Of a DNA stretch of 64,000 nucleotides, positions 28,034 through 55,004 are shown piece after piece (within the stretch, counting starts at the first letter, position 1; every line of letters starts with the position of its first letter). Where the stretch lies: the NCBI GenBank assembly GCA_031366005.1, contig JANLZB010000029.1, positions 24,393 through 88,392 of the forward strand. The letters run 5' to 3'. The stretch is from Bacteroidota bacterium (GTDB lineage: Bacteria; Bacteroidota; Bacteroidia; AKYH767-A; OLB10). The position numbers were made by a program, and so were the translations under genes. The notes under the pieces are model-generated. The model did no database searches. It was given only the letters and a program-made list of their open reading frames with translations, and was not told where the DNA came from.

Positions 28034-28049
28034 GTGAGAAATAAAAAAC

Positions 28050-30344: not shown

Positions 30345-30346
30345 TT

Positions 30347-34243: not shown

Positions 34244-34274
34244 AATATTCCAAATCTTTAAGATTTGGAATATT
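34244..34274. promoter_or_regulatory. Perfect 31-nt AT-rich palindrome immediately after the polX stop and upstream of the GH3 gene
   Basis: aatattccaaatctt-t-aagatttggaatatt; every position pairs across the centre. Confidence 0.7.
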
Positions 34275-34315
34275 TAAACAGAATAAATCTAAATATCCAA
34301 AATCATAAATCTATA

Positions 34316-39570: not shown

Positions 39571-40233
39571 TTATTCATTGTTAGTATTTGTTTTAGTGGT
39601 GAAGCAAATTATCCAATAATAAGTCAAGTTGAACAATTTAAACTCACCTCCAATGTCTTTAAGTTTCTGTTGTAAAAATATTTCTGTCGGGAAGTTTTTC
39701 AAAACTAAATGTGTTGTATTGTCTTCAAGTTTTCTTGTCTGAAAACTGTTGCCATGTTCGTCTCTTTCTGTAATTGGATGATTACTCCCTTCAACAAAAT
39801 TGTTGTCCATAAAAACTACTATGCCGCCAGGAGATACCAAACTGTTTACAATTGAAAGAAATTTGTCAAGATCTTGCAGTAAAATATGACTCCAAATAAA
39901 ACCGCCAAACAAACTTTCAAATTTATTACGGTCAGAAAAATTATAAATGTCAGCAATTCCAAATGAAACTTGTTTGCTTGAGAAATCTTTTTTCTTAGCA
40001 ATATTAATAACCGATTCATTGATGTCGATCGCAAAAATAGAAGTTGTCGTTGCTGCAATTTTCTCTGTCCAATAACCCGTTCCACAAGCAATTTCTAAAA
40101 CTTGTTTGTCGGCAAAAATTTCCTGCAAAATAGTTGCTGCAATTTTCAAGTCCTCTTGTCGTTCAGGTTTGGAATATATTTTCTCATATTCCTTTGCTCT
40201 GTCTTTGTAGTATGAAACTATGTCGGTATTCAT
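39571..40233 (-). CDS. Class I SAM-dependent methyltransferase
   Basis: Motif I VLEIACGTGYWT and motif II/post-I (IFAIDINE). Confidence 0.8.
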   Translation of the reverse strand: MNTDIVSYYKDRAKEYEKIYSKPERQEDLKIAATILQEIFADKQVLEIACGTGYWTEKIAATTTSIFAIDINESVINIAKKKDFSSKQVSFGIADIYNFSDRNKFESLFGGFIWSHILLQDLDKFLSIVNSLVSPGGIVVFMDNNFVEGSNHPITERDEHGNSFQTRKLEDNTTHLVLKNFPTEIFLQQKLKDIGGEFKLFNLTYYWIICFTTKTNTNNE

Positions 40234-40342
40234 TTTGTCGTCTGTCTATTTCTGTTTGTTTCTTGCAGTCAGTTTGATGTTAGCAGTGTCGCCATAGCAT
40301 GCAGAAATCAATTAAATATAAGCATGTTTTCACTCAAAACCT

Positions 40343-40392
40343 TCCGAATATTTCCCGAATATCAGTATTCGGTACGTTTCAGGAAATATTCG
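40343..40392. promoter_or_regulatory. Cluster of CCGAATAT / ATATTCGG half-sites (two direct copies followed by two inverted copies), a candidate operator upstream of the glycan locus
   Basis: ttCCGAATATttCCCGAATATcagtATTCGGtacgtttcaggaaATATTCGGtaag. It lies 265 nt upstream of the epimerase start, in the divergent region shared with the methyltransferase/AspH pair. Confidence 0.35.
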
Positions 40393-40656
40393 GTAAGTCC
40401 CCTTTTTCTAAATCCCCACCTCCAAAAAAACCCCTACTTCCAATCCACTTCTTCAATTCCAATTGCATAACGTCCTTTCTGCGTTTATCTTAATTTTGCC
40501 CACATATATTTGACGCACCATCGCATCGCAAGCACACACTTTTAATGCACATACCGGTCTCTGTATTACCAGCTTATCAGGTTTTTAAAAATATCTGAAA
40601 AAAAACAAAACAATTTTTAATAATCCACGTATATCCACATTCATAAATAAAAATAA

Positions 40657-41583
40657 ATGCAAAAAATTTTAGTTACCGGAGGAGCCGGTTTTATAGGATC
40701 AGCAGTTATTGACAAGCTGCAACGAGAGGGAAAAGAAATCTTTGTTATTGATAACTTATCATTTGGAAATAGAAAATTTATCCAGCTTGATGATGATCAT
40801 TTTTATCAAACAGATATTTTAAATAAACCGGAGATAGATAAAATAATTGACTCCATTCAGCCGGAGATTATCATTCACCTTGCTGCAATACATTTTATCC
40901 CGTATTGCAATCAGCATCCTTATGAGTCAAGCAATGTTAACATCCTTGGCACCACGCATATCCTTGATGCAGCCAAACGCAATAAGGTAAAACAATTTTT
41001 CTTCGCCTCCACCGCTGCCGTTTATCCCATTTATGATGGAGCAGTCAGCGAAACCCATCCCACAGGTCCAATGGATATTTACGGATTAAGCAAATTAGTG
41101 GGCGAGCATTTATGTAATGAGTTTCACCTACTATCCGGAATCCCCACCATCGTTTGCCGTTTCTTCAATGCCTTTGGTCCTAATGAAACCAACGCGCATT
41201 TAATTCCTGAAATACAAAAGCAGGTCAACAACGGCTTGCGTAAAATTCAATTGGGCAACCTCACTCCTAAAAGAGATTTTATTCATACCTCTGATATGGC
41301 AAATGCAGTTCATGTACTGTTAAATAAAGTAACATCCGGCATTCATACTTATAACCTGGGCAGAGGCATCGAGTATTCAGTTACAGATATTGTTGATTCT
41401 TTCTCGCGCCAGACAGGTGAGAAAATAGAAATAGAAGTGGATCCTGCGCGTGTGCGTAAAGTAGAGCGCATGCACTTGCTTGCTGATGTGAGTAAATTAA
41501 AAAGTATTGGCTGGCAGCCTTTGGTTAATATTGACCAGGGTATAAAAACTTTAGTGGAAGAATGGCAGGACCAAAGCAAGTAG
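40657..41583 (+). CDS. NAD-dependent sugar epimerase/dehydratase (SDR family; UDP-sugar 4-epimerase-like)
   Basis: Rossmann motif VTGGAGFIGS and the catalytic YxxxK (YGLSKLVGE). Confidence 0.88.
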   Translation: MQKILVTGGAGFIGSAVIDKLQREGKEIFVIDNLSFGNRKFIQLDDDHFYQTDILNKPEIDKIIDSIQPEIIIHLAAIHFIPYCNQHPYESSNVNILGTTHILDAAKRNKVKQFFFASTAAVYPIYDGAVSETHPTGPMDIYGLSKLVGEHLCNEFHLLSGIPTIVCRFFNAFGPNETNAHLIPEIQKQVNNGLRKIQLGNLTPKRDFIHTSDMANAVHVLLNKVTSGIHTYNLGRGIEYSVTDIVDSFSRQTGEKIEIEVDPARVRKVERMHLLADVSKLKSIGWQPLVNIDQGIKTLVEEWQDQSK

Positions 41584-42680
41584 TTTTTTGTACTGATGGC
41601 ATTTTTCCGCACGCTGTCGGAGGGATGCAGCGCCATTCAGCATTACTTATCCAAGAGTTGTCGCGCCTTAATAAGTACGAGATCATTGTCATTCATCCGC
41701 ATGATAAAAAAGTTTTCAGTCCTGAACTTAATGTTAAGGAGATTGCTTTGAATTTTCCCGTTAACGGAAATTATATTTACTGGTGTTATCAGTATTCAAA
41801 AAAAGTATTTGAGCAGTTGCAGTCTTATCCTCGTGCTGTTATTTATGCGCAGGGGCTTTCAATGTGGCATGGAATAAAAAAAATTGGCAACCGTGTAATT
41901 GTTAATCCTCATGGGTTAGAACCTTTTCAGACGTTCACTGTAAAAGAAAAATTAATAACGGCACCCTTCCGTAAAATTGAACGCTATCTGTTTAAACATG
42001 CGGCAAAGGTGGTTTCCTTAGGAGGCAGATTAACCGATATACTTAAAAAAGAAATTCCCAATTCGCGTAATAAGATTGTGGTGTTGCCCAATGCGGTTAA
42101 TCCTTGTAATTATATCAAACGCAATTTTAAGGATGATAAAATTCAACTCTTGTATGTAGGTCGCTTTGCTTTTAATAAAGGAATAAATATTTTATTGGAA
42201 GCAGTAAGACAATTAAACAATGAAGGGTATCAGAACAAGCTGCAGTTTAATATTGTTGGCAAAGGTCCATTGTATGATGCCTATACAAAACAATATTCGT
42301 TTTCCAATGTAAATTTTATTGGCTTTGCCGCTGATGATTTCCTTCAGCAGCTCTATCGTGAAAATGATCTCTTTGTGTTTCCAACTTTGTTTGAAGGTAT
42401 GCCCACTGTGGTGTTGGAAGCGATGGCAAATGCAATGCCTGTCATCGTGAGCGATACAGGAGCAACCGCTGAATTAGTGAATCAGGATAACGGCTACCTC
42501 ATTGAAAGCAACAATGTGCGTGCATTAAAATGCGCCATCCAAAGTTTTTTTCAACTCAATGCTGCTGACCGTTCAAAGCGCTCTGAAAATTCTTATCAAA
42601 AGCTGATGGCTAATTTTACCTGGCAGGTTGTGGCTGAAAAACATGCTGCATTATTTGATACTTTTAATCACCACGCATGA
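41562..42680 (+). CDS. Glycosyltransferase family 4 (GT-B fold)
   Basis: C-terminal GT1/GT4 motif (FPTLFEGMPTVVLEAMANAMPVIVSD) with the E-x7-E signature. Its start overlaps the epimerase gene. Confidence 0.85.
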   Translation: MAGPKQVVFCTDGIFPHAVGGMQRHSALLIQELSRLNKYEIIVIHPHDKKVFSPELNVKEIALNFPVNGNYIYWCYQYSKKVFEQLQSYPRAVIYAQGLSMWHGIKKIGNRVIVNPHGLEPFQTFTVKEKLITAPFRKIERYLFKHAAKVVSLGGRLTDILKKEIPNSRNKIVVLPNAVNPCNYIKRNFKDDKIQLLYVGRFAFNKGINILLEAVRQLNNEGYQNKLQFNIVGKGPLYDAYTKQYSFSNVNFIGFAADDFLQQLYRENDLFVFPTLFEGMPTVVLEAMANAMPVIVSDTGATAELVNQDNGYLIESNNVRALKCAIQSFFQLNAADRSKRSENSYQKLMANFTWQVVAEKHAALFDTFNHHA

Positions 42681-43987
42681 TTTCATTTATTAAAAAAAAC
42701 GCACAGTTTATTTTAATGTTAATGGTGTGGATTGTTGTAGGAATGTTTGTAAAGGAAACTGCGTTCGTGCTCGTTCCGCTCAGCTTTATGATATTAAAAA
42801 GTAAGAATCGTTACACTGAAATAATTCTTGCTTTTGCTTTAATTCTTTTTCTGTCAGATAACAGGCACCACATGCTTGCTGATATTGCAAACGAAACACG
42901 CGACATGTCAATCGTGCTGCTATCCCTGTTTGTTTTTTTTGATTCAAAACAATTTCCGGTAAAAAGCAGGTTGTTTATGCCTTTCATTCTTTTTCTCTCA
43001 ATGGCACTTTTTCTTGTCCTGAGAAATCCTAATCCGCTTAATTCATTTATGAGAACGGTTTCTTATGGATTGATGCTGTTAACTATTCCAAGTTATTTTA
43101 TCAAAGAATTAAATCGTGACGCAAAAGATTTTCTATGGAATATTGTTTGGTTTTGCGTGCTATTCCTCACCATTGGACTTATTATGATATTGCTGGTGAA
43201 TAATTGGGTATTTATTGGAGGACGTTACAACGGATTATTTGGAAATCCTAATGGTGTCGGAATCATGTGTACGCTTTTAACCATTCTCATTGCTGTTACC
43301 AGGCATCATTTCCCTGATATCTTTAGCCGCACAGAGTTATATTTTATTTATGCAGTCATTATAACCTCCATATTATTATCCAGTTCACGCAACTGTATTT
43401 TTTCCCTGATGATATTTTTATTCTTTATGCGTTTTTATAAAATATCTTATCTGTATGGTTTTATAATTGTGATAGTGGTTGCCGTTGTCTTTCAATTCAT
43501 AAATGAAAACCTGATTTTCATAATCGACTCCTTAGGGCTTGGTTCATATTTTCGGGTTGAACATTTAGATGACGGCTCAGGCAGATTGGTAGCATGGACA
43601 TTTGCGTGGGAGGAGATTCAAAGAAATTTTTACGCGGGAAGGGGTTTTGGTTTTGATAAATATTATTTTGAATTACACAAAGATTATCTATCATCATTGG
43701 GTCACCAGGGTGGTGTACACAACAGCTATCTCACCATTTGGATGAACACTGGTTTAATAGGTTTGATTCTTTTTATCATTGCTTACTTCCGTATTTTTTT
43801 CAAAGCTGCCACAATAAATTATCTTGCTATTCCCGCCATGTTTGCCATCATGTTTTCCATCAGTTTTGAATCATGGGCTGCATCCTCTTTAAGTCCGTTC
43901 ACTATAATTTTTCTTCTCATCATTACTTTATTGCAATATCAAAAAAATGAATCTCCAGCGCAAGAAGCTCTTGTTCCTTTACAATGA
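42677..43987 (+). CDS. wzy: O-antigen polymerase/ligase-family membrane protein (Wzy-like)
   Basis: About 10-12 transmembrane helices with a large periplasmic loop, located in a glycan cluster. ATGA overlap with the upstream glycosyltransferase gene. Confidence 0.6.
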   Translation: MISFIKKNAQFILMLMVWIVVGMFVKETAFVLVPLSFMILKSKNRYTEIILAFALILFLSDNRHHMLADIANETRDMSIVLLSLFVFFDSKQFPVKSRLFMPFILFLSMALFLVLRNPNPLNSFMRTVSYGLMLLTIPSYFIKELNRDAKDFLWNIVWFCVLFLTIGLIMILLVNNWVFIGGRYNGLFGNPNGVGIMCTLLTILIAVTRHHFPDIFSRTELYFIYAVIITSILLSSSRNCIFSLMIFLFFMRFYKISYLYGFIIVIVVAVVFQFINENLIFIIDSLGLGSYFRVEHLDDGSGRLVAWTFAWEEIQRNFYAGRGFGFDKYYFELHKDYLSSLGHQGGVHNSYLTIWMNTGLIGLILFIIAYFRIFFKAATINYLAIPAMFAIMFSISFESWAASSLSPFTIIFLLIITLLQYQKNESPAQEALVPLQ

Positions 43988-45014
43988 ACTGGCAGGTTAT
44001 TTCCTCGCATGTATTGATAAACTGTCAATGCTTCATGATGTGGATATTCATATCGTAAGATATCCGCTTAATCCGGTTGCACCATTTGAATTTAAGTTTA
44101 ACAATCATGTTAAATATTACGAACGAAAAGAGTATAACCGTACACAATTAATCGCATTAGCGAAAGAAATTAATCCTGATTTTATTTATACGGGAGGTTG
44201 GATGGATAAAGATTACATTGCAGTAAGCAAAAGTTTTAAAAATATTCCAATCGTTCTTACTTGCGATATGCCGTGGCTCGGTACTGCGAGACAAAAATTA
44301 GCATCCGTACTCGGACCATTATATCTGCCACGCATATTTACGCATTGCTGGGTACCCGGTGAGCCCAATGCTTTTTATGCAAGAAAACTTGGGTTCAAAG
44401 GCAATCGTTTATTAATGGGAGTGTATTCTGCCGATTATGATTTGTTTCATAATTATTATTTGCAGCATCGCGAAGCAAAGCAAAAACAATTTCCAAAACG
44501 GTTTATTTATGTAGGAAGATATGCAGAGTTAAAAGGTGTGCGCGAATTGTGGAAAGCATTTATGCAATTACAGAATGAGCAGCCCAATGAATGGGAATTA
44601 TGGTGTCTGGGTAAAGGAGATTTTGATGCTGAATTTCCTATAAACGAAAAGATTAAGAACTTTGGCTTTGTGCAACCCAAAGACTTAAATAAATTTATTG
44701 AGCAAACTGGCGTATTTATTTTTCCAACATACTATGAGCATTGGGGTGTAGTTGTTCATGAGTTTGCTGCTGCAGGTTTTCCGTTAGTGTGCAGTACTAC
44801 TACCAGCGCTGCAACCACTTTTCTCCGCGAAGCGTATAATGGTTATTATACAAAGCCAAGAGAGGTCTCGTCCATAGTAGATGCGATGAAAAAAATTATT
44901 GCAATGGATAACCAAGCGTTGTTTGAAATGGGAGAGCGCAGCGTTGAACTCTCCAGGCAAATTACTCCTGAAACATGGAGCAGTATCATTATGAATCTGG
45001 CGAATAAAAATTAA
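43947..45014 (+). CDS. Glycosyltransferase family 4
   Basis: FPTYYEHWGVVVHEFAAAGFPLVCS, the E-x7-E GT4 motif. Confidence 0.8.
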   Translation: MNLQRKKLLFLYNELAGYFLACIDKLSMLHDVDIHIVRYPLNPVAPFEFKFNNHVKYYERKEYNRTQLIALAKEINPDFIYTGGWMDKDYIAVSKSFKNIPIVLTCDMPWLGTARQKLASVLGPLYLPRIFTHCWVPGEPNAFYARKLGFKGNRLLMGVYSADYDLFHNYYLQHREAKQKQFPKRFIYVGRYAELKGVRELWKAFMQLQNEQPNEWELWCLGKGDFDAEFPINEKIKNFGFVQPKDLNKFIEQTGVFIFPTYYEHWGVVVHEFAAAGFPLVCSTTTSAATTFLREAYNGYYTKPREVSSIVDAMKKIIAMDNQALFEMGERSVELSRQITPETWSSIIMNLANKN

Positions 45015-45017
45015 AAC

Positions 45018-46889
45018 ATGTGTGGCATTTGCGGAATTTACGGATTGAATAAAGCGGAATCAACACCAATGGTTCAGAAGATGAATGATTGCATTGCACA
45101 TCGCGGACCTGATGATGATGGTTTTTATGTGGATGATAAAGTTGCACTCGGCCATCGCAGGCTTGCCATTATTGATTTAAGTCCGGCAGGTCATCAACCG
45201 ATGCAGGATGCTTCGCAGGATCTGGAATTAATTTTCAATGGTGAGATTTATAATTTTCTTGAGGTACAACCTCTAATTAATGATTACCCTTTTAAAACTA
45301 AAAGTGATTCGGAAGTTATACTTGCTTCTTATAAAAAATGGGGAGCGGATTGTGTGCATCAGTTCAATGGAATGTTTGCATTTGCAATATGGGATAAAAA
45401 GAAAGAAGAGTTGTTTATTGCACGCGATCGTTTAGGCATTAAGCCACTATATTATTATCAAAAAGATAATGTTTTTTTGTTTGCTTCTGAAGTTCGTGCA
45501 TTACTTGCTACAGGATTAGTTCCTCGTAAAATAAACCAACATGCACTGGCTGATTATTTCACTTATCAAACTGTGCATGCTCCGCAAACTTTAATTGAAG
45601 GTGTGCAGATGCTGATGCCCGGTCATCATATTATTATCAATAAAGGTGGAGTAAAAATTGAGCAATACTGGAGTCCGCAGAAAAACTTTACGGATGATTC
45701 AAAAAGCAAATCATACAATGAAGTTTGTGATGATGTGTATGAGTTATTGAAAGCATCTGTGAAAAGGAGATTGATAAGTGATGTTCCTTTCGGAGCATTT
45801 CTTTCAGGAGGAATTGATTCAAGCGCAGTGGTTGGATTGATGAGTGAAGCACAACAGCAACCTGTAAAAACATTTACCATCGTTTTTGGTGAGAAAGAAT
45901 TCAGCGAAGCTCAATATGCACGTGTTATTGCAGATAAATTTAAAACGGATCATCATGAGTTTCATCTTAGCCCTAAAGATTTTTTAGATGATTTGCCTCA
46001 TGCGTTAAATGCATTGGATCATCCAAGTGGGGACGGACCAAATTCTTTTATCGTATCACGCATCACACGTGAAAATGGAATCACAATGGCCTTATCAGGT
46101 TTAGGTGGTGATGAATTGTTTGCAGGCTATCCTGTGTTCAACCGTTATTTAAAATTAAAAGATAAAGAATGGTTGTGGAGAACACCCGAAGCAATCAGAA
46201 AACTGGCTGGTGTCGCACTCGCAACTGCCAAACCCGGTATCACATCCAATAAAGTAAAACAGTTTTTAGAATTGGAGAATGTAGATCTTGCAAATTCATT
46301 TCCTGTTTTTCGCCAGGTAGGAAATCCTTCTGCACTTGCAGCATTACTTAATCTGAAAAAATTACCTGCTGATCAGATTCAACGAATTTTAAAAACAGAG
46401 TTGAATGGAAAGGCATCATCGCTTCCGTTACTTAGCCAGGTAAGCATTGCGGAGATTACCACTTACATGCAAAATGTTTTGTTACGTGATACTGATCAGA
46501 TGAGTATGGCTGTTGCTTTGGAAGTGCGTGTTCCGTTTTTAGATTATAAGTTAGTGGAATATGTTTTAGGAATTCCCGATCAGTATAAGAAACCAATCTA
46601 TCCGAAAAAATTGTTGGTAGATAGTCTCAAAGGTTTGTTGCCCGATGAAATTGTTCATCGTAAAAAAATGGGGTTCGTGTTTCCCTGGGAAGTGTGGCTG
46701 AAAAACGAATTGCGTGATTTTTGTGAAGAGCGCATCAATCAATTATCAAAAAGAAATTTTATTAATGGAAAACATTTGCAAAATCAATGGATTAAATTTT
46801 TGCAGGGAGATAAGAACATTCGCTGGTTAGATATGTGGTTATGTGTAGTGCTTGAAGACTGGATGGAAAAAAACAGGGTTGTAGAATAA
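45018..46889 (+). CDS. asnB: Asparagine synthase (glutamine-hydrolysing)-family amidotransferase (WbpS-like, glycan-associated)
   Basis: N-terminal nucleophile MCGICG and the PP-loop SGGIDSS. 623 aa. Confidence 0.88.
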   Translation: MCGICGIYGLNKAESTPMVQKMNDCIAHRGPDDDGFYVDDKVALGHRRLAIIDLSPAGHQPMQDASQDLELIFNGEIYNFLEVQPLINDYPFKTKSDSEVILASYKKWGADCVHQFNGMFAFAIWDKKKEELFIARDRLGIKPLYYYQKDNVFLFASEVRALLATGLVPRKINQHALADYFTYQTVHAPQTLIEGVQMLMPGHHIIINKGGVKIEQYWSPQKNFTDDSKSKSYNEVCDDVYELLKASVKRRLISDVPFGAFLSGGIDSSAVVGLMSEAQQQPVKTFTIVFGEKEFSEAQYARVIADKFKTDHHEFHLSPKDFLDDLPHALNALDHPSGDGPNSFIVSRITRENGITMALSGLGGDELFAGYPVFNRYLKLKDKEWLWRTPEAIRKLAGVALATAKPGITSNKVKQFLELENVDLANSFPVFRQVGNPSALAALLNLKKLPADQIQRILKTELNGKASSLPLLSQVSIAEITTYMQNVLLRDTDQMSMAVALEVRVPFLDYKLVEYVLGIPDQYKKPIYPKKLLVDSLKGLLPDEIVHRKKMGFVFPWEVWLKNELRDFCEERINQLSKRNFINGKHLQNQWIKFLQGDKNIRWLDMWLCVVLEDWMEKNRVVE

Positions 46890-48046
46890 TGAACGAAAAA
46901 CGCAGAAAAAAAATTGTGGTATTAATTGACTGGTATCTTCCCGGATATAAGGCAGGTGGCCCGATTCAATCAGTTGCAAACATGGTTGTCAGGTTAAAAG
47001 AAGATTTTGAATTTGTAATCATTACCGGTGATACTGACGAAAGTGAAACCACTCCTTATACAACTGTAAAAAGCGATGCATGGAACACATTGTCTGATGG
47101 CACACGGGTTTATTATTTCTCAAAGAATGGCAGAAAATTCGGCACACTAAAAAAGATTATGCTGAAGGAACAGGCTGATGTATTTTATCTCAACAGTTTA
47201 TTCTCTGTTTTTTTTACTATGTATCCACTGATAATCAGGAAATATTTTATGCCTGCGCGAAAAATAATTTTGGCTTGCCGTGGCATGTTGGGTAAAGGAG
47301 CATTGGATATCAAATCAGGAAAGAAAAAATTGTTTTTATCTACTGCACGTTTAATAGGTTTATATAAAAATGTTAACTGGCATGCTTCTACAGAAATAGA
47401 AGCCAAAGAAATTGCATTGAATTTCGGAAAGCATCAAAAAGTTTCAGTCGCCACCAATCTCACTGCTTTAAAATCCTGTCCATCATTTGATAGGAAAAAA
47501 GAAGTTGGTAAAGTATGTTTTGTGTATTTATCACGAATCTCGCCAATCAAAAATCTGCTTGCAAGCATTCATGCAATTTTAAAATTACCCGACACTTATC
47601 AGGTGGAGTTTGATATCTATGGACCCATTGATGATATTTCCTATTGGGAAAAGTGCAAACTTGCAATTTCAAAAACCCCTCCGCACATTAAAATAAATTA
47701 TAAGGGCGCAATTGCTAACAGTGAGGCGATAAAAGTGCTGGAAAGCTATCATTTTGTTTTGTTGCAGACACACCATGAAAATTTCTGTCACTCTATAATT
47801 GAAAGCATGGCTGCAGGTTGTGTGACTGTTATTACTGACCAAACACCGTGGCGAAATCTTACAGCAGTTAAAGCGGGTTGGGATCTTCCGCTCAATGATG
47901 AACCTGCATTATTAGAAACATTAAAAATCTGTTGCGAAATGGATCAGGAAACTTTTAATGAATGGAGTAAAGCGGCTTTTAACTTTGCCGAAAAAGTAAT
48001 TAATAATCCCCAGCTGATAGAAGACAACAAAAGATTGTTTGCTTGA
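46889..48046 (+). CDS. Glycosyltransferase (GT4-like, GT-B fold)
   Basis: Capsule-locus-type glycosyltransferase with a C-terminal E-x7-E-like region (HHENFCHSIIESMAAGCVTVITD). ATGA overlap with asnB. Confidence 0.65.
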   Translation: MNEKRRKKIVVLIDWYLPGYKAGGPIQSVANMVVRLKEDFEFVIITGDTDESETTPYTTVKSDAWNTLSDGTRVYYFSKNGRKFGTLKKIMLKEQADVFYLNSLFSVFFTMYPLIIRKYFMPARKIILACRGMLGKGALDIKSGKKKLFLSTARLIGLYKNVNWHASTEIEAKEIALNFGKHQKVSVATNLTALKSCPSFDRKKEVGKVCFVYLSRISPIKNLLASIHAILKLPDTYQVEFDIYGPIDDISYWEKCKLAISKTPPHIKINYKGAIANSEAIKVLESYHFVLLQTHHENFCHSIIESMAAGCVTVITDQTPWRNLTAVKAGWDLPLNDEPALLETLKICCEMDQETFNEWSKAAFNFAEKVINNPQLIEDNKRLFA

Positions 48047-48128
48047 GGAACCTCTATCTTTACATACTGCAACTTTACAGACTGAAAGACGTATAAAAAA
48101 ACTGCCGCAGAAAAACGATTATTTACAC

Positions 48129-48902
48129 ATGAAAGTTTCCATAATTACAATTACTTACAACAGTGCACAAACAGTGGAAGATACCATTAAAACAGTGGTA
48201 TCTCAGGATTATCCTGATATAGAATATTTAATCATTGACGGTAAATCAAAGGACAGGACGCTTGAAATCGCAGCGAAATTTCAAAACAAAATTTCAAAAA
48301 TTGTTTCTGAAAAAGACAAAGGACTTTATGATGCACTAAACAAAGGCATTGCACATGCTACAGGTGATATAATCGGTATGTTGCACAGCGATGATTTATA
48401 TGCACACAATCAGGTAATCAGTAAAGTGGTTCAGAAATTTAAGGAAGATGCGAACCTTGAAGGGGTGTATGCAGATCTTGTTTTTGTAAATCGTAAAGAC
48501 ATAAATAAACCAATGCGGGTTTGGGAATCCGGTGAATATGAAGAAGGCGCTTTTTTAAAAGGGTGGATGCCTCCTCATCCTACTTTCTTTGTGAAAAAAG
48601 AAGTGTATGAAAAATTTGGAGGATTTAATACCGGACTTAAACTTTCAGCTGACTATGAGTTGATGCTGCGTTTGATTCATAAGAACGGAATTAAAATCGC
48701 TTATTTAAAAGATACCATTGTAAAAATGCGTATGGGTGGCGTGAGCAACGTGAGCATATTTGTTAAAATAAAAGCAAATCTTGAAGACAAGCTCGCATGG
48801 AAATTAAATGGAATTAATCCCGGTATTGCCACCACATTATTAAAGCCATTGAAAAAAATAAAACAGTATTTCAAACGGGCTTATGCGACAGTTTTTATGT
48901 AA
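48129..48902 (+). CDS. Glycosyltransferase family 2
   Basis: MKVSIITITYNSAQTVEDTI...YLIIDGKSKD, i.e. the GT-A DxD region. The start was moved to the internal Met at 48129. Confidence 0.85.
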   Translation: MKVSIITITYNSAQTVEDTIKTVVSQDYPDIEYLIIDGKSKDRTLEIAAKFQNKISKIVSEKDKGLYDALNKGIAHATGDIIGMLHSDDLYAHNQVISKVVQKFKEDANLEGVYADLVFVNRKDINKPMRVWESGEYEEGAFLKGWMPPHPTFFVKKEVYEKFGGFNTGLKLSADYELMLRLIHKNGIKIAYLKDTIVKMRMGGVSNVSIFVKIKANLEDKLAWKLNGINPGIATTLLKPLKKIKQYFKRAYATVFM

Positions 48903-48963
48903 AGGATTAATTTTATCGTTTTGCAAATTTTTATCTTAAGATTTAAAAATTCCTATTAATAAA

Positions 48964-49566
48964 ATGAGTGACCAACAGGCAAAAGTTGATCTTTCCCGTT
49001 TCAATTCAGCTGAATTTGATATTGGTGCTTCATGGTTTAAATATGGTATATGGCACTTGTGCAGCATTCTGTTTTTCAACAGCCCGTTTTGTCCTTCAAG
49101 TAAAATACGCGCAACAATACTTCGCTGGTTCGGTGCTAAGGTTGGCAATGGTTTGGTAATGAGTAAGCCGAATGTTAACATTAAATTTCCGTGGCGGTTA
49201 ACCATCGGCAATCATGTGTGGATAGGAGAAAAAGCCTGGATATATAACATTGATCAGGTAAATATTGGTGATAATGTAAATATTGCACAAGGTGCTTTGC
49301 TTTTAACCGGTAATCACAATTATAAGAGTGTGGAGTTTGAAACCATAACAGGTCCGATAATAATTGAAGATGGTGTTTTCATTGGAGCACAATCTATCGT
49401 TTGCCCGGGTGTTACCTGCAAATCACACAGTATTCTCGGTGCAGGTTCTGTTGCCACGCATAATCTTGAACCTTATAAAATTTATATGGGTGTACCTGCA
49501 GTTTATAAAAAAGACCGGGTAGTGATGGAGCGGAATCAGTTAGAGAAGAAGAATGTATCTGTATAA
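48964..49566 (+). CDS. Hexapeptide-repeat (LbH) sugar O-acetyltransferase (WcaF/colanic-acid acetyltransferase-like)
   Basis: Left-handed beta-helix hexapeptide repeats (IGNHVWIGEKAWI, IGDNVNIAQGALL, IEDGVFIGAQSIV). The last ~20 codons appear to have been replaced by an insertion. Confidence 0.8.
   Translation: MSDQQAKVDLSRFNSAEFDIGASWFKYGIWHLCSILFFNSPFCPSSKIRATILRWFGAKVGNGLVMSKPNVNIKFPWRLTIGNHVWIGEKAWIYNIDQVNIGDNVNIAQGALLLTGNHNYKSVEFETITGPIIIEDGVFIGAQSIVCPGVTCKSHSILGAGSVATHNLEPYKIYMGVPAVYKKDRVVMERNQLEKKNVSV
49505..49540. repeat. Direct repeat, copy 1 (within the 3' end of the acetyltransferase gene)
   Basis: tataaaaaagaccgggtagtgatggagcggaatcag. It recurs at 50274-50314 with 1 substitution and 1 indel. 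Confidence 0.85.
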
Positions 49567-49602
49567 ATAATTCTAATAGCGAAATCATATACTTAAATTT
49601 GC

Positions 49603-49896
49603 ATGATGCATTCGCACACTGAAATAGAAAATAAATTACGATTGCTGAAACCTGTTTTAACTGAAACCTATTCAGTAAAAAATATCGGGTATTTTGGCTC
49701 TTATGCTGACCAAAATCAAAATCAACAAAGTGATCTTGACATCCTTGTAGAATTTACCAAACCTGTTGGATGGAATTTTTTTGCTCTGGAAAAATATCTT
49801 GAAGAACAATTTGGTTTAAAGGTGGATTTAGTTACACCCAATGCTCTCAAAGAACAGCTGAAAGAAAGAATATTAAATCAAGTCAGGTTTGTGTGA
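49603..49896 (+). CDS. MntA-type nucleotidyltransferase antitoxin
   Basis: GSYADQNQNQQSDLDILVEF, the minimal nucleotidyltransferase GS-x(n)-D-x-D motif. Confidence 0.8.
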   Translation: MMHSHTEIENKLRLLKPVLTETYSVKNIGYFGSYADQNQNQQSDLDILVEFTKPVGWNFFALEKYLEEQFGLKVDLVTPNALKEQLKERILNQVRFV

Positions 49897-50252
49897 AAAA
49901 GGACGAAAGAAGCTATTTGCTTTTTCTTGAAGACATTCTTCTTTCGATGAATCGGATTGAAGAATATGTGATAGGACTTGACCTTCAGCATTTCAAATGG
50001 GATTATAAAACAGTAGATGCAGTAATACGCAATTTTGAAATTATCGGAGAAGCGTCAAAAAATCTTCCGGATGAATTCAAGTTAAAATACCCGGCTCTTC
50101 CCTGGGAAGAGATGTATCGTTTACGTAACAGAATATCACATGAATACTTTGGAATTGATTACGAGATAATTTGGGATATTGCTAATAATTATATTCCTGT
50201 TAACAGAAAAGAAATAGAAATGATATTAAATAATTTGAAAAACACGAATTAG
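49893..50252 (+). CDS. HepT-type (DUF86) HEPN toxin
   Basis: R-x4-HEY motif (RNRISHEYFGID). 4-nt overlap with the MntA gene. Confidence 0.8.
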   Translation: MKKDERSYLLFLEDILLSMNRIEEYVIGLDLQHFKWDYKTVDAVIRNFEIIGEASKNLPDEFKLKYPALPWEEMYRLRNRISHEYFGIDYEIIWDIANNYIPVNRKEIEMILNNLKNTN

Positions 50253-50273
50253 ATTTTCTTAATGGATACAGCA

Positions 50274-50314
50274 CTTTATAAAAAAGACCGGGTAGTGATG
50301 GAGCCGAATTCAGC
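50274..50314. repeat. Direct repeat, copy 2 (a relic of the acetyltransferase 3' end, downstream of the toxin-antitoxin cassette)
   Basis: tttataaaaaagaccgggtagtgatggagccgaattcag. In frame it encodes YKKDRVVMEPNSAIKNPVTNQIR*, which parallels the ...YKKDRVVMERNQLEKKNVSV* end of the current acetyltransferase. Confidence 0.85.
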
Positions 50315-50479
50315 AATAAAAAATCCTGTGACTAATCAAATCAGATAAGCATTGTTTTTAACCATTTATGCAATGCCATTTTAATTTTAAATTAATTTTA
50401 AAGAACACACAACTTTATTTAAACTTCCCTCGTAAAAAAACGAATGTTAGCTTTGCGCTTTAATTATCAGGATAAATAA

Positions 50480-51076
50480 ATGCAGTCAACCAATATTGTA
50501 AAACAGGATTACAAGATCAGTAAGAAGGATCGCGTTCAGCTATTGAATCAGCGTCCGGTTATTATCTGGCTTACTGGTTTGAGTGGTTCAGGCAAATCAA
50601 CAATTGCTGATCGTTTGGAACAGGAATTGTTTCAGAAAGGATATAAAACTTATTTACTGGATGGCGACAACATTCGCCATGGTTTGAATAAAAATATTGA
50701 TTTTACTGATGATGGAAGAAAAGAAAACATCAGGCGTATAGGCGAAGTGGCAAAGCTGTTTGTGGATGCTGGCATCATTGTTATTACCGCATTTATCTCT
50801 CCCTTTATTGAGGATAGAAACTCAGTGCGTGCATTGGTTGAAAAAAACGAATTTATTGAAGTGTTTGTAGAGTGTCCCATTGAAGTTTGCGAAAGCCGCG
50901 ATGTGAAAGGCTTATATCAGAAAGCACGCAAAGGTGAAATTCCTAATTTTACAGGCATTAGCTCAGCTTTTGAGACTCCATTAAACCCGGAAATAATTGT
51001 GCATACTGCACAGCATACTTTAGAAAATTGTGTGAACCAAATTTTAGATTTTACGTTAAACAGAATTAAAAAATAA
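50480..51076 (+). CDS. cysC: Adenylyl-sulfate (APS) kinase
   Basis: P-loop IWLTGLSGSGKSTIA. The 198-aa length and motifs are typical of CysC. Confidence 0.9.
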   Translation: MQSTNIVKQDYKISKKDRVQLLNQRPVIIWLTGLSGSGKSTIADRLEQELFQKGYKTYLLDGDNIRHGLNKNIDFTDDGRKENIRRIGEVAKLFVDAGIIVITAFISPFIEDRNSVRALVEKNEFIEVFVECPIEVCESRDVKGLYQKARKGEIPNFTGISSAFETPLNPEIIVHTAQHTLENCVNQILDFTLNRIKK

Positions 51077-51083
51077 ATAATAC

Positions 51084-51989
51084 ATGATTCTTTATCATTT
51101 AAATCATTTAAGAGAGTTAGAAGCAGAAGCCATTTACATCATTCGCGAAACAGCTTCTCAATTTGATCGCCCAGCATTATTATTTTCAGGTGGAAAAGAT
51201 TCCATCGTGATGACACATCTTGCACAAAAAGCATTTTATCCGGCACGCATTCCCTTTCCTTTGGTGCACGTTGATACAGGACATAACTTTCCTGAAACAA
51301 TAACTTTCCGTGATGAGATGGTGGAAAGAATTGGCGCGCAATTAATAGTGCGATATGTTCAGGATTCAATTGATAAAGGGCGTGCTAAAGAAGAGAAAGG
51401 TCCGAATGCAAGTCGTAATGTATTGCAGACAGTCACTTTGTTAGATGCATTGGAAGAATTAAAAATTGATGCTGCATTAGGCGGTGCCCGCAGGGATGAA
51501 GAAAAGGCTCGTGCTAAAGAACGTTTCTTTTCACATCGTGATGACTTCGGCCAGTGGGATCCAAAAAATCAGCGCCCTGAATTATGGAATTTATTAAACG
51601 GAAGAAAAAATGTTGGTGAACACTTCCGTGTGTTTCCGCTCAGCAACTGGACAGAAATGGATGTGTGGCAATACATTCAATTAGAGAAATTAGAAATACC
51701 AACTATTTATTTCTCTCACGTTCGTGATATTGTGGAGCGTGATGGAATGTTGTTGTATGCTTCTGAATTTATTACAATACGACCAAATGAAGAAGTACAA
51801 AAACGTGTTGTTCGTTACCGCACCGTTGGTGACATGACTTGCACCGGTGCAGTAGCATCTCCTGCAAGCACACTGGATGAAATTATTGATGAAGTGGCAA
51901 CAAGCAGAACTACAGAACGTGGTACACGTGCAGATGATAAGCGAAGCGAGAGTGCAATGGAAGACAGAAAAAAAGCAGGATACTTTTAA
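51084..51989 (+). CDS. cysD: Sulfate adenylyltransferase subunit 2
   Basis: PAPS-reductase-like PP-loop (LLFSGGKDS) and a CysD-specific C-terminal region. Confidence 0.9.
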   Translation: MILYHLNHLRELEAEAIYIIRETASQFDRPALLFSGGKDSIVMTHLAQKAFYPARIPFPLVHVDTGHNFPETITFRDEMVERIGAQLIVRYVQDSIDKGRAKEEKGPNASRNVLQTVTLLDALEELKIDAALGGARRDEEKARAKERFFSHRDDFGQWDPKNQRPELWNLLNGRKNVGEHFRVFPLSNWTEMDVWQYIQLEKLEIPTIYFSHVRDIVERDGMLLYASEFITIRPNEEVQKRVVRYRTVGDMTCTGAVASPASTLDEIIDEVATSRTTERGTRADDKRSESAMEDRKKAGYF

Positions 51990-52052
51990 AAAAAATGTTG
52001 AATGTTGAGTTATGAATTATAAATTGAATAAAAACATATTCATAAGTAACAG

Positions 52053-52087
52053 TAACTCATAACTCATAACTCAAAATTCAAAATTCA
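52053..52087. repeat. Tandem heptamers (3x TAACTCA, then 2x AAAATTCA) in the unusually long cysD-cysN spacer
   Basis: agtaactcataactcataactcaaaattcaaaattcaaaactta. Confidence 0.8.
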
Positions 52088-52110
52088 AAACTTAAAATTA
52101 AAATAAAGCA

Positions 52111-53385
52111 ATGAGCAATTACAGCCAGGAAGGCTATTTGAATATGGAGCTGTTACGATTTACAACAGCAGGAAGTGTTGACGATGGAAAAAGTACATTG
52201 ATCGGACGTTTATTGTACGATAGCAAATCAATTTTTGAAGACCAGATAGAAGCCATTGAAAGAACAAGTAAACAGAAAGGCTTTGAACATGTTGACCTTA
52301 GTTTATTAACTGATGGTTTGCGTGCTGAACGTGAACAGGGAATTACAATTGATGTTGCTTATCGTTACTTCGCTACACCGCGCAGAAAATTTATCATTGC
52401 AGATACACCCGGACATATTCAATATACACGCAACATGGTTACGGGTGCATCCACTGCAAACGTTGCACTTATATTAGTGGATGCGCGCAAAGGTGTTTTA
52501 GAACAAACCATCCGACATTCGTTTATTGCAGCGTTATTGCAAATTCCTCATCTTATCATTTGCATTAACAAAATGGATCTGGTGGATTATAATGAGGAGG
52601 CTTATTGGAAGGTAGTGGAAGAATATAAAAAGCTTTCTTCAAAGCTTGAAATAAAAGATGTAACATTTATTCCTGTGAGTGCATTGAAAGGAGATAACGT
52701 GGTGGATAAGAGTGAAAACATGCCATGGTATAAAGGCACCACACTAATGTATCTCTTGGAAAATATTCACATCAGCAGTGATGAAAATCATATTGACTGC
52801 AGGTTTCCGATTCAGTATGTAATACGTCCGCAGCAAACAGAATATCATGATTACCGTGGTTATGCCGGACGCATTGCGAGTGGAATTTTTAAACCTGGTG
52901 ATAAAATAAAAGTGTTGCCTAACGGTGAATCGGCTACAGTTAAAACGATTGAAATATTTGGTAAGGAAATTAAGGAAGCTTATTCTCCAATGTCAGTAAC
53001 AATGACACTTGATCGCGATGTAGATATAAGCCGTGGAGATATGTTGGTACGTGAAAACAATCTTCCGGAAGTTGCAAATGAACTCGATGTAATGGTTTGC
53101 TGGATGCATACAAATAAATTGCAGCCTGGTGGAAAATATATTTTACGTCATACCACACGCGAAGCCCGTTGCGTGGTAAAAGATGTTCGTTATAAAGTTG
53201 ACATCAATACACTTCATCGTAATGAAATAGATAAAGAAATTGGCATGAATGACATTGCACGGATTCAAATCAAGTCAGCCGTTCCATTGTATCATGATCC
53301 TTATCGTAAAAACAGAACCACAGGAAGTGTAATTTTAATTGACGAAGGCACTAATGAAACTGTGGCTGCAGGAATGATCGTATAA
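52111..53385 (+). CDS. cysN: Sulfate adenylyltransferase subunit 1 (GTPase)
   Basis: GTPase G1 GSVDDGKST, G3 DTPGH and G4 NKMD. The 424-aa length means it is not fused to an APS-kinase domain, which is consistent with a separate cysC gene. Confidence 0.9.
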   Translation: MSNYSQEGYLNMELLRFTTAGSVDDGKSTLIGRLLYDSKSIFEDQIEAIERTSKQKGFEHVDLSLLTDGLRAEREQGITIDVAYRYFATPRRKFIIADTPGHIQYTRNMVTGASTANVALILVDARKGVLEQTIRHSFIAALLQIPHLIICINKMDLVDYNEEAYWKVVEEYKKLSSKLEIKDVTFIPVSALKGDNVVDKSENMPWYKGTTLMYLLENIHISSDENHIDCRFPIQYVIRPQQTEYHDYRGYAGRIASGIFKPGDKIKVLPNGESATVKTIEIFGKEIKEAYSPMSVTMTLDRDVDISRGDMLVRENNLPEVANELDVMVCWMHTNKLQPGGKYILRHTTREARCVVKDVRYKVDINTLHRNEIDKEIGMNDIARIQIKSAVPLYHDPYRKNRTTGSVILIDEGTNETVAAGMIV

Positions 53386-53460
53386 TATAAGCAGCAGTAA
53401 ACAGTGGCAGTATTCAGTTCTGCCTCCTGTTGCTGCTTACTGCTGTTAACACAATAAATA

Positions 53461-54279
53461 ATGGACAACTACAACCCCTTACTCTCTCTCGCATTAAAAG
53501 CAGCAGTGATTGCTGGTAAAGAAATTAATAAAGTTTATTCCGGTGAAATCACTGTTGAGTTAAAACAGGATCAGTCGCCACTAACAGAAGCGGATAAACG
53601 TTCTCATGATAAAATTGTTGAAGTTTTATCTGAATCCATGTTGCCTGTTTTAAGCGAAGAAGGCAAGGCGATTGATTTCACTGAACGCAGCAAATGGAAA
53701 ATGTTCTGGATGATTGATCCTCTTGATGGCACTAAAGAATTTATTAAACGCAATGGAGAATTTACAGTAAACATTGCTTTGATCAGAAATGATGAACCGG
53801 TGATGGGTGTAATTTATGCTCCTGTAATTGATGTATTGTATTTCGGTTGTGAAGGAACAGGCAGTTATCGTGTGGAGGCGGATGAAGAGCATTTATCACA
53901 CCTTATCCAATCCAATCATGTTGCCGATCGTTTTGTAAGTGCATCCAAAAAGCTTCCGTTAAAAAAAGAAGAAAAAAAATTTACTGTTGTTGCAAGCCGT
54001 TCTCACATGAGTGAAGAAACGCAAAAATTTATTGAATCACTTCGCGAAAAACACGGAGAAGTCAACCTGATCTCCAAAGGAAGTTCATTAAAACTTTGTT
54101 TAGTCGCAGAAGGCAGTGCTGATGTTTACCCGCGTTTTGCTCCTACTATGGAATGGGACACAGCGGCAGGACAAGCCATTGCACGTTATGCAGGTTTTAA
54201 AGTTTTAAATGTGCTCGATAAAAATCCGATGCTTTACAACAAAACGGAATTATTGAATCCGTGGTTTATTGTGGAGTGA
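53461..54279 (+). CDS. cysQ: 3'(2'),5'-bisphosphate nucleotidase (inositol-monophosphatase family)
   Basis: WMIDPLDGTKEF and downstream WD/GG motifs of the IMPase/CysQ family. Confidence 0.85.
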   Translation: MDNYNPLLSLALKAAVIAGKEINKVYSGEITVELKQDQSPLTEADKRSHDKIVEVLSESMLPVLSEEGKAIDFTERSKWKMFWMIDPLDGTKEFIKRNGEFTVNIALIRNDEPVMGVIYAPVIDVLYFGCEGTGSYRVEADEEHLSHLIQSNHVADRFVSASKKLPLKKEEKKFTVVASRSHMSEETQKFIESLREKHGEVNLISKGSSLKLCLVAEGSADVYPRFAPTMEWDTAAGQAIARYAGFKVLNVLDKNPMLYNKTELLNPWFIVE

Positions 54280-54327
54280 AAAATCCAATACCGGTTTAAG
54301 TATTAATTTTGATAAAAACAATGGAAC

Positions 54328-54543
54328 ATGAGAGCTGTCGAATTTAAAACCCGAGTAAAGAAAAATTCATTGCCTATTCCGGATCGCTTGCAAACCGAAA
54401 TAAATGCTGCAAAATCAAAAGATGTGCGTGTAATAGTTTTAATAGATGAAACAGAATCATTAGAAGAAATAGATTTTAAAAATATTGCAAAGGAGCAGTT
54501 TTTAAAAGGTTATGATGATGTTGACGCTGTTTATGACAACTAA
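54328..54543 (+). CDS. Putative antitoxin (small acidic protein upstream of PemK/MazF)
   Basis: 71 aa, sharing the TAATG stop/start overlap with the toxin gene. It is not an obvious AbrB/MazE fold. Confidence 0.5.
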   Translation: MRAVEFKTRVKKNSLPIPDRLQTEINAAKSKDVRVIVLIDETESLEEIDFKNIAKEQFLKGYDDVDAVYDN

Positions 54544-54872
54544 TGCAGATGCCTGATTTAAAATTCGGAGATATTGTTTTAATTAAATTCCCTTTTACTG
54601 ATGGTAAAGGTTTTAAAAAACGCCCCGCTCTGGTTATAAGAAATTCTGATGATGGAGATATTCTTGTGTGCCGTATCACAGGAAAAAAATATGATACTTC
54701 TTTTGATATAGATTTAAAAAACTGGAGTCATTACGGATTAAAATTACCATCAGTAATCAGGACTCATAAATTAGTTACATTAGAATCTGATCTAGTAGAA
54801 GAAAAATTAGGAGTTATAAAGACGGTGGATAAAAACTCAGTAAAAGCACTTTTTAAAAAACTTCCAGGATAA
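54543..54872 (+). CDS. PemK/MazF-family type II toxin (mRNA interferase)
   Basis: GDIVLIKFPFTDGKGFKKRPALVI...SVIRTHKLVTLE, the canonical PemK/MazF core. Confidence 0.8.
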   Translation: MQMPDLKFGDIVLIKFPFTDGKGFKKRPALVIRNSDDGDILVCRITGKKYDTSFDIDLKNWSHYGLKLPSVIRTHKLVTLESDLVEEKLGVIKTVDKNSVKALFKKLPG

Positions 54873-55004
54873 AACAAACCACTGCACGGTTCTCCTTCTT
54901 CTTATAACATCCAATTAAAGAAATAAAAAAAAGGCCTTTGTTCGTTAAAAGTGTGCTGGTGCTTCTAACAAACAGATTAGCATACACACCGACACATTGA
55001 AAGG

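Follow-up and report, generated by a model that had tools for sequence, protein, structure and literature searches.

A probable self-contained PAPS cassette beside, and not within, a conserved glycan operon of an uncultured Bacteroidota bacterium

If a complete set of sulfate activation genes lies directly behind a glycan operon, is the glycan sulfated? The question is posed by a stretch of 64,000 nucleotides from a Bacteroidota bacterium (hereafter the window), in which a glycan operon (40657-49566) is followed by cysC-cysD-cysN-cysQ (50480-54279), the genes that provide and recycle the supply of 3'-phosphoadenosine 5'-phosphosulfate (PAPS). CysDN makes adenosine 5'-phosphosulfate (APS) from sulfate and ATP with consumption of GTP, CysC phosphorylates APS to give PAPS, and CysQ clears 3'-phosphoadenosine 5'-phosphate (PAP), the product inhibitor that remains after sulfo-transfer. 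Few sulfated bacterial polysaccharides have been characterized and such polymers are wanted as heparin-like biomaterials, hence reliable genomic signatures of their synthesis would be useful.

A reading made from the letters of this DNA alone (the sequence-only reading) had treated the region as a single locus, a run of ten genes fused to the PAPS pathway, and had proposed a sulfated polysaccharide as its product. The genes it named are real and lie where it placed them (Pfam and NCBIfam matches), including a distant sulfotransferase and wza, wzc and wzx. The architecture it proposed fared less well. We hold with moderate confidence that the cys genes form an autonomous PAPS supply and recycling cassette that sits beside, and is not part of, a glycan operon conserved in the clade, and that two lineage-specific toxin-antitoxin modules have inserted at the cassette borders. 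The stretch would then be a composite of separate units (glycan operon, MNT/HepT module, cys cassette and mazEF-like module) rather than one fused operon.

A complete cassette of a class that accompanies sulfotransferase and glycan genes

CysC, CysD, CysN and CysQ each exceed the curated cutoff of their family, and the cassette is complete (Table 1). A CysD-seeded scan of species-representative genomes gave 80 loci, the best CysD match being 85% (L and P numbers below are our handles for related loci and contigs). At these loci the cysC-cysD-cysN block, in some cases together with cysQ, is common across Bacteroidota and Verrucomicrobiota, and the order cysC-D-N-Q is retained in L001-L006, L057 and L088 as well as in many other Bacteroidota loci. 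Glycan-type or sulfotransferase genes were present within 10 kb at 17 of the 31 loci having both cysC and cysQ versus 3 of the 49 other CysD loci (Fisher p = 1.5e-6). The latter comprise 31 loci having cysC without cysQ, three of which have such neighbors, and 18 cysDN-only loci, none of which do. The window cassette belongs to the sulfotransferase- and glycan-associated class, which argues for a dedicated PAPS donor function and against an assimilatory role.

Among 148 open reading frames (ORFs) located within 3.7 kb of the 31 cysC+cysQ cassettes, the top families were Epimerase/GDP_Man_Dehyd (13), RmlD (9), Sulfotransfer_1/3 (8), Polysacc_synt_2 (6) and Wzx (5), and neither PAPS/APS reductase nor sulfite reductase was among the families listed for these flanks. 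The cysC-less cysDN loci L042, L035, L066, L075 and L016 had unrelated flanks (an ABC transporter in the case of L075) and provided no contrast in cysH or sulfite reductase content.

The seven closest cassettes (CysD 81-85% identical) have only the four cys genes in common with the window. Sulfotransfer_1/3 genes adjoin five of the seven, and in most of them the gene directly upstream of cysC encodes an SLC13/CitMHS-TrkA_C transporter. The gene order is sulfotransferase-transporter-cysCDNQ in L001, L004 and L057, transporter-cysCDNQ-wzx-four sulfotransferases-wzy in L003, and transporter-cysCDNQ-wzx-sulfotransferase-wzy-GT4-two sulfotransferases in L006 (GT, glycosyltransferase). In Algoriphagus limi (L067) the order is GT4-GT4-WcaF-GT2-Wzi-transporter-cysCDNQ-DegT-ATP-grasp/epimerase-sulfotransferase-like.

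An assimilatory operon would have cysH and sulfite reductase genes linked to cysDN. No such linkage is seen in the window, as family scans of the 64 kb found no cysH, sulfite reductase or cysK among its ORFs. In an Rfam scan of all 64 kb, neither a riboswitch nor any other RNA was found upstream of cysC. From these comparisons, the view of the cys genes as a dedicated sulfation (PAPS donor) module seems well supported. The cassette would feed PAPS-dependent sulfotransferases and not cysteine synthesis. By analogy with the relatives, the leading candidate acceptor is a cell-surface glycan, which would require a sulfotransferase encoded elsewhere because the operon and its conserved versions contain none.

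A toxin-antitoxin insertion and a promoter-like block separate cassette and operon

The statement that the glycan genes run straight into cysC did not hold. The two units are separated by an MNT/HepT insertion (49603-50252), a 228-bp spacer between hepT and cysC, and a promoter-like block. cysC begins 914 bp past the acetyltransferase gene that ends the operon, and only 163 bp past it in L088, the corresponding locus of the sister metagenome-assembled genome (MAG) GCA_031409815.1. The module is flanked by an exact 30-bp direct repeat, TTTATAAAAAAGACCGGGTAGTGATGGAGC, of which L088 has a single copy upon alignment with the window. The exact duplication together with the lack of the module in the sister locus marks MNT/HepT as an insertion, which would have entered the 3' end of the acetyltransferase gene in the window lineage.

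The spacer upstream of cysC has diverged between the window and L088 with the exception of one near-identical block, AAAAACGAATGTTAGCTTTGCGCTTTAATT. Within this block TAGCTTTG (50448-50455), located 25 nt before the cysC ATG, fits TAnnTTTG, which we take to be the Bacteroidetes -7 promoter consensus. The motif is depleted over the window (50 occurrences versus 97 expected from shuffles), and 11 of the 50 lie within 100 nt upstream of same-strand gene starts versus 2.3 expected, an enrichment of about 5-fold (p = 1.4e-5) that is inflated somewhat by AT-rich intergenic sequence. Given the conserved block with its motif and the enrichment of the motif upstream of genes, the cassette seems to be an independent transcription unit, probably with a promoter of its own 25 nt before cysC. 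Scans of 40000-55200 for sigma-70 promoters (50 promoter-like sites versus 55.8 in shuffles) and for intrinsic terminators (9 terminator-like sites versus 10.1 in shuffles) were uninformative. The depletion of TAnnTTTG over the window, taken together with its concentration 17-61 nt upstream of start codons, is consistent with selection against spurious promoters.

The cassette is followed by a mazEF-like pair, the genes of which were called on a Logan contig (L082) and are not found after cysQ in L088. The mazE-like ORF has no family match and was assigned by position alone. A TAnnTTTG motif at 54304 lies ahead of the pair. The PAPS cassette thus has a type II toxin-antitoxin module on either side, and the two modules differ. 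Arrival of the cys cassette together with these modules as a mobile island was considered and ruled out: the sister MAG has the junction without either module, and the GC content of the window (35%) is flat. In Algoriphagus limi a small PDDEXK_3-family gene (L067, 6742-7119) sits at the junction of glycan genes and transporter-cys cassette; junctions of this kind may be prone to selfish or accessory insertions in more than a single lineage.

An apparently old neighborhood with a probably derived junction

The ten genes of the sequence-only reading count as eight glycan genes plus the four cys genes. The eight are co-directional and overlap or almost abut, as it had described. They recur as a whole operon in five other genomes or contigs and the GT2 protein is strongly conserved (at least 73% identity in 120 of the 120 protein clusters listed), observations that ruled out a strain-variable O-antigen island. 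Identity of the operon proteins to those of the window is 59-88% in L088, 47-77% in L090 and 48-81% in L092 and L093. The first gene product, the epimerase, is 88% identical in L088 and 75-79% identical in L090, L092 and L093, and the Wzy_C protein is 48-59% identical in the relatives. As the Wzy_C Pfam family takes in O-antigen ligases as well, polymerase and ligase are not separable by the family match. L088, L092 and L093 have the AsnB-type gene, and L090 is without one. The GT2 ORF opens at 48039 but its real start is the ATG at 48129, in agreement with the homologues.

Operon and cassette are also found near each other in three further genomes or contigs (L088, P0188 and L090) and, by inference, in two more (L092 and L093). 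In L088 cysC-D-N-Q follow the operon with no toxin-antitoxin genes. On the P0188 contig the cassette is about 4 kb from the operon, with Fasciclin, YceI and tRNA_anti-like genes between them. In L090 the distance is 7.5 kb and the intervening genes encode a DUF5777 protein, YceI, a cytochrome, a LytTR regulator, a Y_Y_Y histidine kinase and a second YceI. In L092 and L093 the cassette, the presence of which is inferred, would lie more than 10 kb from the operon behind an L090-like block. In L001-L005 and L057 the cassette is likewise preceded by two large ORFs that match in size and orientation and are presumably the kinase/YceI block. Because a kinase/YceI-like block recurs between operon and cassette or before the cassette in relatives, the neighborhood appears to be old in the clade. 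Direct juxtaposition of operon and cysC was seen only in the window and the sister MAG. In the relatives the two are kept apart by unrelated genes over 4 to more than 10 kb, and the direct junction is therefore probably derived, through loss of the intervening block, a change that was polarized without an outgroup.

Beyond the clade, a related GT4-WcaF-GT2 block (46-53% identity) lies upstream of a transporter-cys cassette in two Cytophagales genomes, those of Algoriphagus limi (L067) and a Catalinimonas MAG (L041). This linkage across orders is the best hint of a functional coupling that goes beyond inherited synteny.

Several side observations concern the operon. Window and L088 differ little in their Cys proteins (90-98% identity; 98% for CysD) and more in their glycan operon proteins (59-88% identity; Wzy 59%, first GT4 65%). 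The cys genes and the operon would therefore differ greatly in constraint or have different histories. At the 3' end of the operon GT2 precedes the acetyltransferase in the window and L088, and the two stand in reverse order in L090 and L093, on the P0188 contig and in Algoriphagus L067; this local swap maps to the same spot as the absent intervening block and the toxin-antitoxin insertion. A Glyco_transf_21 (ceramide-glucosyltransferase-like) GT2 recurs in L086 (5799-6962), L087 (5785-6951) and L093 (1-773), and a 685-aa form of it stands first in the extended glycan operon of L093 and of the P0188 contig.

T9SS-tailed proteins (T9SS, type IX secretion system) and DUF4270 mark the window as part of a Bacteroidia genome. 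Exact window proteins were found solely on short Logan metagenome contigs (SRR20217206, SRR20217216 and SRR20217217), which points to an uncultured organism.

Table 1 Features of the window that bear on the cassette, the glycan operon and sulfation
Feature	Position	Strand	Evidence
PAPS-type sulfotransferase, CurM ST/TPST-like branch	22876-23913	-	PF13469 (Sulfotransfer_3) 109 bits vs cutoff 27
Secreted MORN_2-repeat protein, upstream partner of the sulfotransferase	24002-25489	-	PF07661 171 bits
wza	27260-28033	+	Poly_export plus SLBB
wzc	28050-30344	+	Wzz plus GNVR plus AAA_31
wzx-like flippase	30347-31609	+	Polysacc_synt_3 31.5 bits vs cutoff 23
SDR (short-chain dehydrogenase/reductase)/NAD-dependent sugar epimerase/dehydratase, first operon gene	40657-41583	+	PF01370 191 bits
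GT4 glycosyltransferase	41562-42680	+	PF00534, PF13692 ~108 bits; kept in L088, L090, L093
Wzy_C-domain membrane protein (polymerase or ligase type)	42677-43987	+	PF04932 61 bits vs cutoff 31.7
GT4 glycosyltransferase	43947-45014	+	PF00534 74 bits
AsnB-type glutamine-dependent amidotransferase	45018-46889	+	PF00733 287 bits; TIGR01536 492 bits
GT4-type glycosyltransferase	46889-48046	+	PF00534 40.8 bits; full-length below-cutoff XrtY-associated GT1 match (NF046085, residues 8-378, 82.9 bits, under its 400-bit cutoff)
GT2 glycosyltransferase, 257 aa	48129-48902	+	PF00535 101.6 bits
WcaF-family hexapeptide O-acetyltransferase, last operon gene	48964-49566	+	NF007797 203.8 bits vs cutoff 192
30-bp exact direct repeat, left copy (acetyltransferase 3' end)	49502-49531	+	TTTATAAAAAAGACCGGGTAGTGATGGAGC
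MNT-type nucleotidyltransferase antitoxin	49603-49896	+	PF01909 (NTP_transf_2) 47.8 bits, above cutoff; not in L088
HepT-like RNase toxin	49893-50252	+	PF01934 90.1 bits, above cutoff; not in L088
30-bp exact direct repeat, right copy	50275-50304	+	TTTATAAAAAAGACCGGGTAGTGATGGAGC
Conserved promoter-like block upstream of cysC	50436-50465	+	AAAAACGAATGTTAGCTTTGCGCTTTAATT
cysC, APS kinase	50480-51076	+	PF01583 229.6 bits; NF003013 291 bits vs cutoff 163
cysD, sulfate adenylyltransferase small subunit	51084-51989	+	NF003587 459.8 bits vs cutoff 195
cysN, sulfate adenylyltransferase GTPase subunit, separate from cysC	52111-53385	+	TIGR02034 571.9 bits vs cutoff 336
cysQ, 3'(2'),5'-bisphosphate nucleotidase (PAP recycling)	53461-54279	+	TIGR01331 284.5 bits vs cutoff 228.8
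mazE-like small ORF	54328-54543	+	
MazF/PemK toxin	54543-54872	+	PF02452 44.7 bits, above cutoff

The window sulfotransferase lies outside the locus and is paired with a MORN protein gene

The absence of a sulfotransferase from the locus, noted in the sequence-only reading, was confirmed by family scans, by a scan for the 5'-phosphosulfate-binding (5'-PSB) motif and by a custom sulfotransferase hidden Markov model (HMM) built from 120-plus homologues. The motif scan and the custom HMM gave none in L088, L090, L092 or L093 either, so that in these loci, as in the window, the operon has no such gene inside it or less than 10 kb away; no operon protein fits a sulfotransferase family in Pfam, and the family listing of the P0188 contig contains no sulfotransferase family. 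The suggestion that a non-canonical enzyme might be among the hypothetical proteins found no support at HMM sensitivity: the products of 31643-32449, 35833-36624, 3242-4183 and 12952-14124 plus several small ORFs gave no sulfotransferase-like Pfam match at E values up to 1.

The 5'-PSB scan of all ORFs and the custom HMM search each matched a single ORF of the window, that at 22876-23913. Its protein has the intact motifs that had been ascribed to it, GAPRSGTS as 5'-PSB and RDPRDVVMS as 3'-phosphate-binding (3'-PB) motif. The nearest Protein Data Bank (PDB) entries are 4gbm (CurM ST, E = 1e-12), followed by TPST1/2. CurM ST is a polyketide-synthase sulfotransferase domain. The alignment to 4gbm covers residues 5-248 and the PPExHLLP segment, which we take to be the catalytic-base region, is kept. 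The nearest relatives of the cassette-linked sulfotransferase of L001 are the heparan-sulfate N- and 3-O-sulfotransferases.

The upstream partner of the window enzyme is a Tyr-rich MORN_2-repeat protein having a signal-peptide-like N-terminus, MKKYFLIFLILCNVQLLCAQ. Orthologues of the sulfotransferase are rare and come from metagenomes only. In all three orthologous contexts (L085, L086 and L087) a gene of about 500 codons lies directly upstream of the sulfotransferase gene, down to 44% identity; homology of its product to the window MORN protein was checked for L085 (83% identical). The spacer of the pair is 30-88 nt and the pair sits between rpiB and RNase R, whether or not wza/wzc are nearby. 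The arrangement looks like a conserved two-gene unit, and in the distant relatives L086 and L087 the Glyco_transf_21 GT2 is found near it. The sister MAG has both the pair and the junction of operon and cassette. Because of the conserved MORN pairing and the CurM/TPST nearest relatives, the window enzyme seems a weak fit for a role in polysaccharide synthesis.

One could combine these findings in a picture where the clade keeps a conserved Wzy-type operon beside a dedicated PAPS cassette, and sulfation is carried out by the non-adjacent CurM/TPST-like enzyme or on another acceptor. We consider this picture improbable. If it were true, the sulfotransferase-MORN pair might serve to sulfate bacterial proteins (at tyrosine) or lipids with PAPS from the cassette, a kind of system for which we know of few bacterial precedents beyond RaxST/RaxX.

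Weighing the alternatives

Several points weigh against an autonomous cassette dedicated to sulfation. A PAPS-reductase-type cysH and a sulfite reductase could lie outside the 64 kb, in which case the cassette could also serve assimilation. The immediate neighbors of the window cassette are MNT/HepT upstream and mazEF downstream, and there is no contiguous sulfate transporter or sulfotransferase gene of the kind that the relatives' cassettes carry, hence the analogy is incomplete. Operon and cassette may have stayed linked inside one clade simply because the gene order was inherited, with no functional coupling behind it. Lastly, the promoter call is made from a short motif plus conservation with one sister genome, and read-through from the glycan operon is possible.

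The alternative that survives best keeps the proposal of the sequence-only reading, namely that the product of the 40657-49566 operon is itself sulfated, with the cys genes part of the locus and either the sulfotransferase at 22876-23913 or one encoded outside the window acting on it. We regard this as possible, although not as the expected outcome. The recurrence of operon and cassette as neighbors in the window and three other genomes or contigs (probably in two more) speaks for it, as do the GT4-WcaF-GT2 blocks upstream of transporter-cys cassettes in L067 and L041, the presence of both junction and sulfotransferase-MORN pair in GCA_031409815.1, and the related Bacteroidota loci L003, L006 and L067, in which the cassette lies inside Wzx/Wzy polysaccharide loci having up to four sulfotransferases of carbohydrate type. 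Published sulfated capsular polysaccharide (CPS) clusters likewise hold cysDNC, cysQ and a sulfate permease (PMC11641403, PMC11766843). However, a sulfated operon product must be reconciled with operon surroundings that, to a distance of 10 kb, are free of sulfotransferase genes in the window as well as in four related loci, and with a window enzyme that is encoded 17 kb away on the opposite strand, retains its MORN pairing even where wza/wzc are not nearby and is nearest to CurM ST/TPST, whereas the cassette-linked enzymes of relatives are nearest to heparan-sulfate sulfotransferases. The promoter-like block of cysC also argues against a single locus.

A second alternative has the cassette feeding the CurM/TPST-like sulfotransferase for action on a non-glycan acceptor, either a lipid or hydroxy-acyl group or the tyrosines of the MORN protein. 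In its favor, this enzyme is the sole sulfotransferase of the 64 kb, its pairing with the upstream gene is kept in all three contexts, its best structural matches are CurM ST and TPST1/2, it keeps the PPExHLLP segment of the CurM ST alignment, and the MORN protein is Tyr-rich and carries a signal peptide. A Bacteroides PAPS cluster provides a parallel in that it serves a cholesterol sulfotransferase (PMC9417993). We nevertheless consider a non-glycan acceptor unlikely: the pair and the cassette are 27 kb apart with no physical linkage, Sulfotransfer_3 also includes carbohydrate sulfotransferases and thus the family does not fix the acceptor, and the MORN protein is at most a candidate substrate, suggested by gene pairing. 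This model and the others are not mutually exclusive and can hold together.

A third alternative, that the cassette simply activates sulfate for assimilation along the PAPS route of E. coli and lies beside the glycan operon by a coincidence of synteny, is highly doubtful. In its favor, cysDNC plus cysQ is exactly what PAPS-dependent assimilation needs, the window cassette has no adjoining sulfotransferase or transporter, and linkage inside one clade may be inherited. Against it stand the lack of cysH, sulfite reductase and cysK in the window and in the family listing for the flanks of the 31 related cassettes, the strong association of cysC+cysQ cassettes with sulfotransferase and glycan genes, and the sulfotransferase that adjoins the cassette in five of the seven closest relatives.

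Comparison with known sulfation systems

The view that the cassette is an autonomous unit next to the operon can be set against systems in which sulfation has been studied. In rhizobia, sulfation of Nod factor and lipopolysaccharide (LPS) (nodPQ-nodH and lpsS) uses PAPS as donor, and nodPQ are dedicated duplicate copies of cysDNC. In Synechocystis PCC 6803 the sulfated exopolysaccharide synechan (xss) is a Wzx/Wzy-type polysaccharide that is sulfated from PAPS (PMC8205485). Unlike the window operon, the synechan and rhizobial systems encode dedicated sulfotransferases; they belong to other phyla and have only enzyme families in common with the window.

In Vibrio sp. KMM 8419 and in Cobetia marina KMM 1449, cysD, cysN and cysC lie within or beside a CPS cluster, and the products of both clusters were shown to be sulfated by nuclear magnetic resonance (NMR) (PMC11641403, PMC11766843). 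The Cobetia cluster adds cysQ and a sulfate permease (PMC11766843), and the Vibrio PAPS genes are second copies (PMC11641403). As in the window, the PAPS genes adjoin a polysaccharide cluster. These clusters of Gammaproteobacteria have one to three sulfotransferases and ABC (Kps) export, whereas the window locus has neither sulfotransferase nor permease, its Wza/Wzc/Wzx-type genes are 9 kb off, and it is known from its genes alone.

Within the phylum of the window, Bacteroides thetaiotaomicron BT_0411-BT_0415 (sulfate importer and PAPS genes) and the adjacent sulfotransferase gene BT_0416 form one module, and BT_0416 sulfates cholesterol (PMC9417993). This architecture is matched by the window-cassette relatives L001, L004 and L057. 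In contrast, the window cassette has lost or never had transporter and sulfotransferase, and it abuts a glycan operon. L003, L006 and L067 have the cysC-cysD-cysN-cysQ order of the window (CysD 74-82% identical) with polysaccharide genes directly adjacent, Wzx plus Wzy in L003 and L006 and Wzi plus DegT in L067. They have four (L003), three (L006) and one (L067) sulfotransferase-like genes, that of L067 being a match to the custom HMM and not to Pfam, whereas no such gene occurs in the window operon, whose genes have no homology to those of L003 or L006.

A PAPS cassette beside a glycan operon is thus a kind of arrangement that is already known. It is recurrent in Bacteroidota, as about half of the sampled cysC+cysQ cassettes have glycan or sulfotransferase neighbors. 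The Vibrio authors give the occurrence together of PAPS genes and sulfotransferases as the hallmark of sulfated polysaccharide synthesis (PMC11641403). In the window, PAPS genes are adjacent to the glycan cluster and an in-cluster sulfotransferase is missing. The sulfated-polysaccharide proposal therefore stands insofar as the cys genes look like a PAPS donor module, and falls short on the sulfotransferase: the window resembles the PAPS-supply half of such systems and, judged by this enzyme, does not qualify as a sulfated-polysaccharide cluster. Here adjacency alone is insufficient: the cassette appears autonomous, the locus lacks a sulfotransferase, and operon and cassette have probably become direct neighbors only recently. 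The discriminating marker would be the sulfotransferase and not the cys genes.

Export genes

The wza-wzc-wzx genes (27260-31609) were cited as completing a Wzx/Wzy-dependent pathway. The three genes are present and syntenic in the sister locus L085 (77-85% identity). Completeness was not borne out within the window, because no initiating phosphoglycosyltransferase (Bac_transf PF02397 or WecA-type PF00953) was found in the scanned window ORFs, which included nearly all of those of at least 100 aa; the priming enzyme may be encoded outside the window. The export genes and the operon are also separated by 9 kb of mostly unrelated, housekeeping-type genes that encode PolX, GH3, dNK, an M48 peptidase, an Asp hydroxylase and a methyltransferase. 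The GH3-family protein (34265-35836), located between PolX and a hypothetical gene, is a full-length protein of the plant auxin-amido-synthetase type and has no relation to the cassette.

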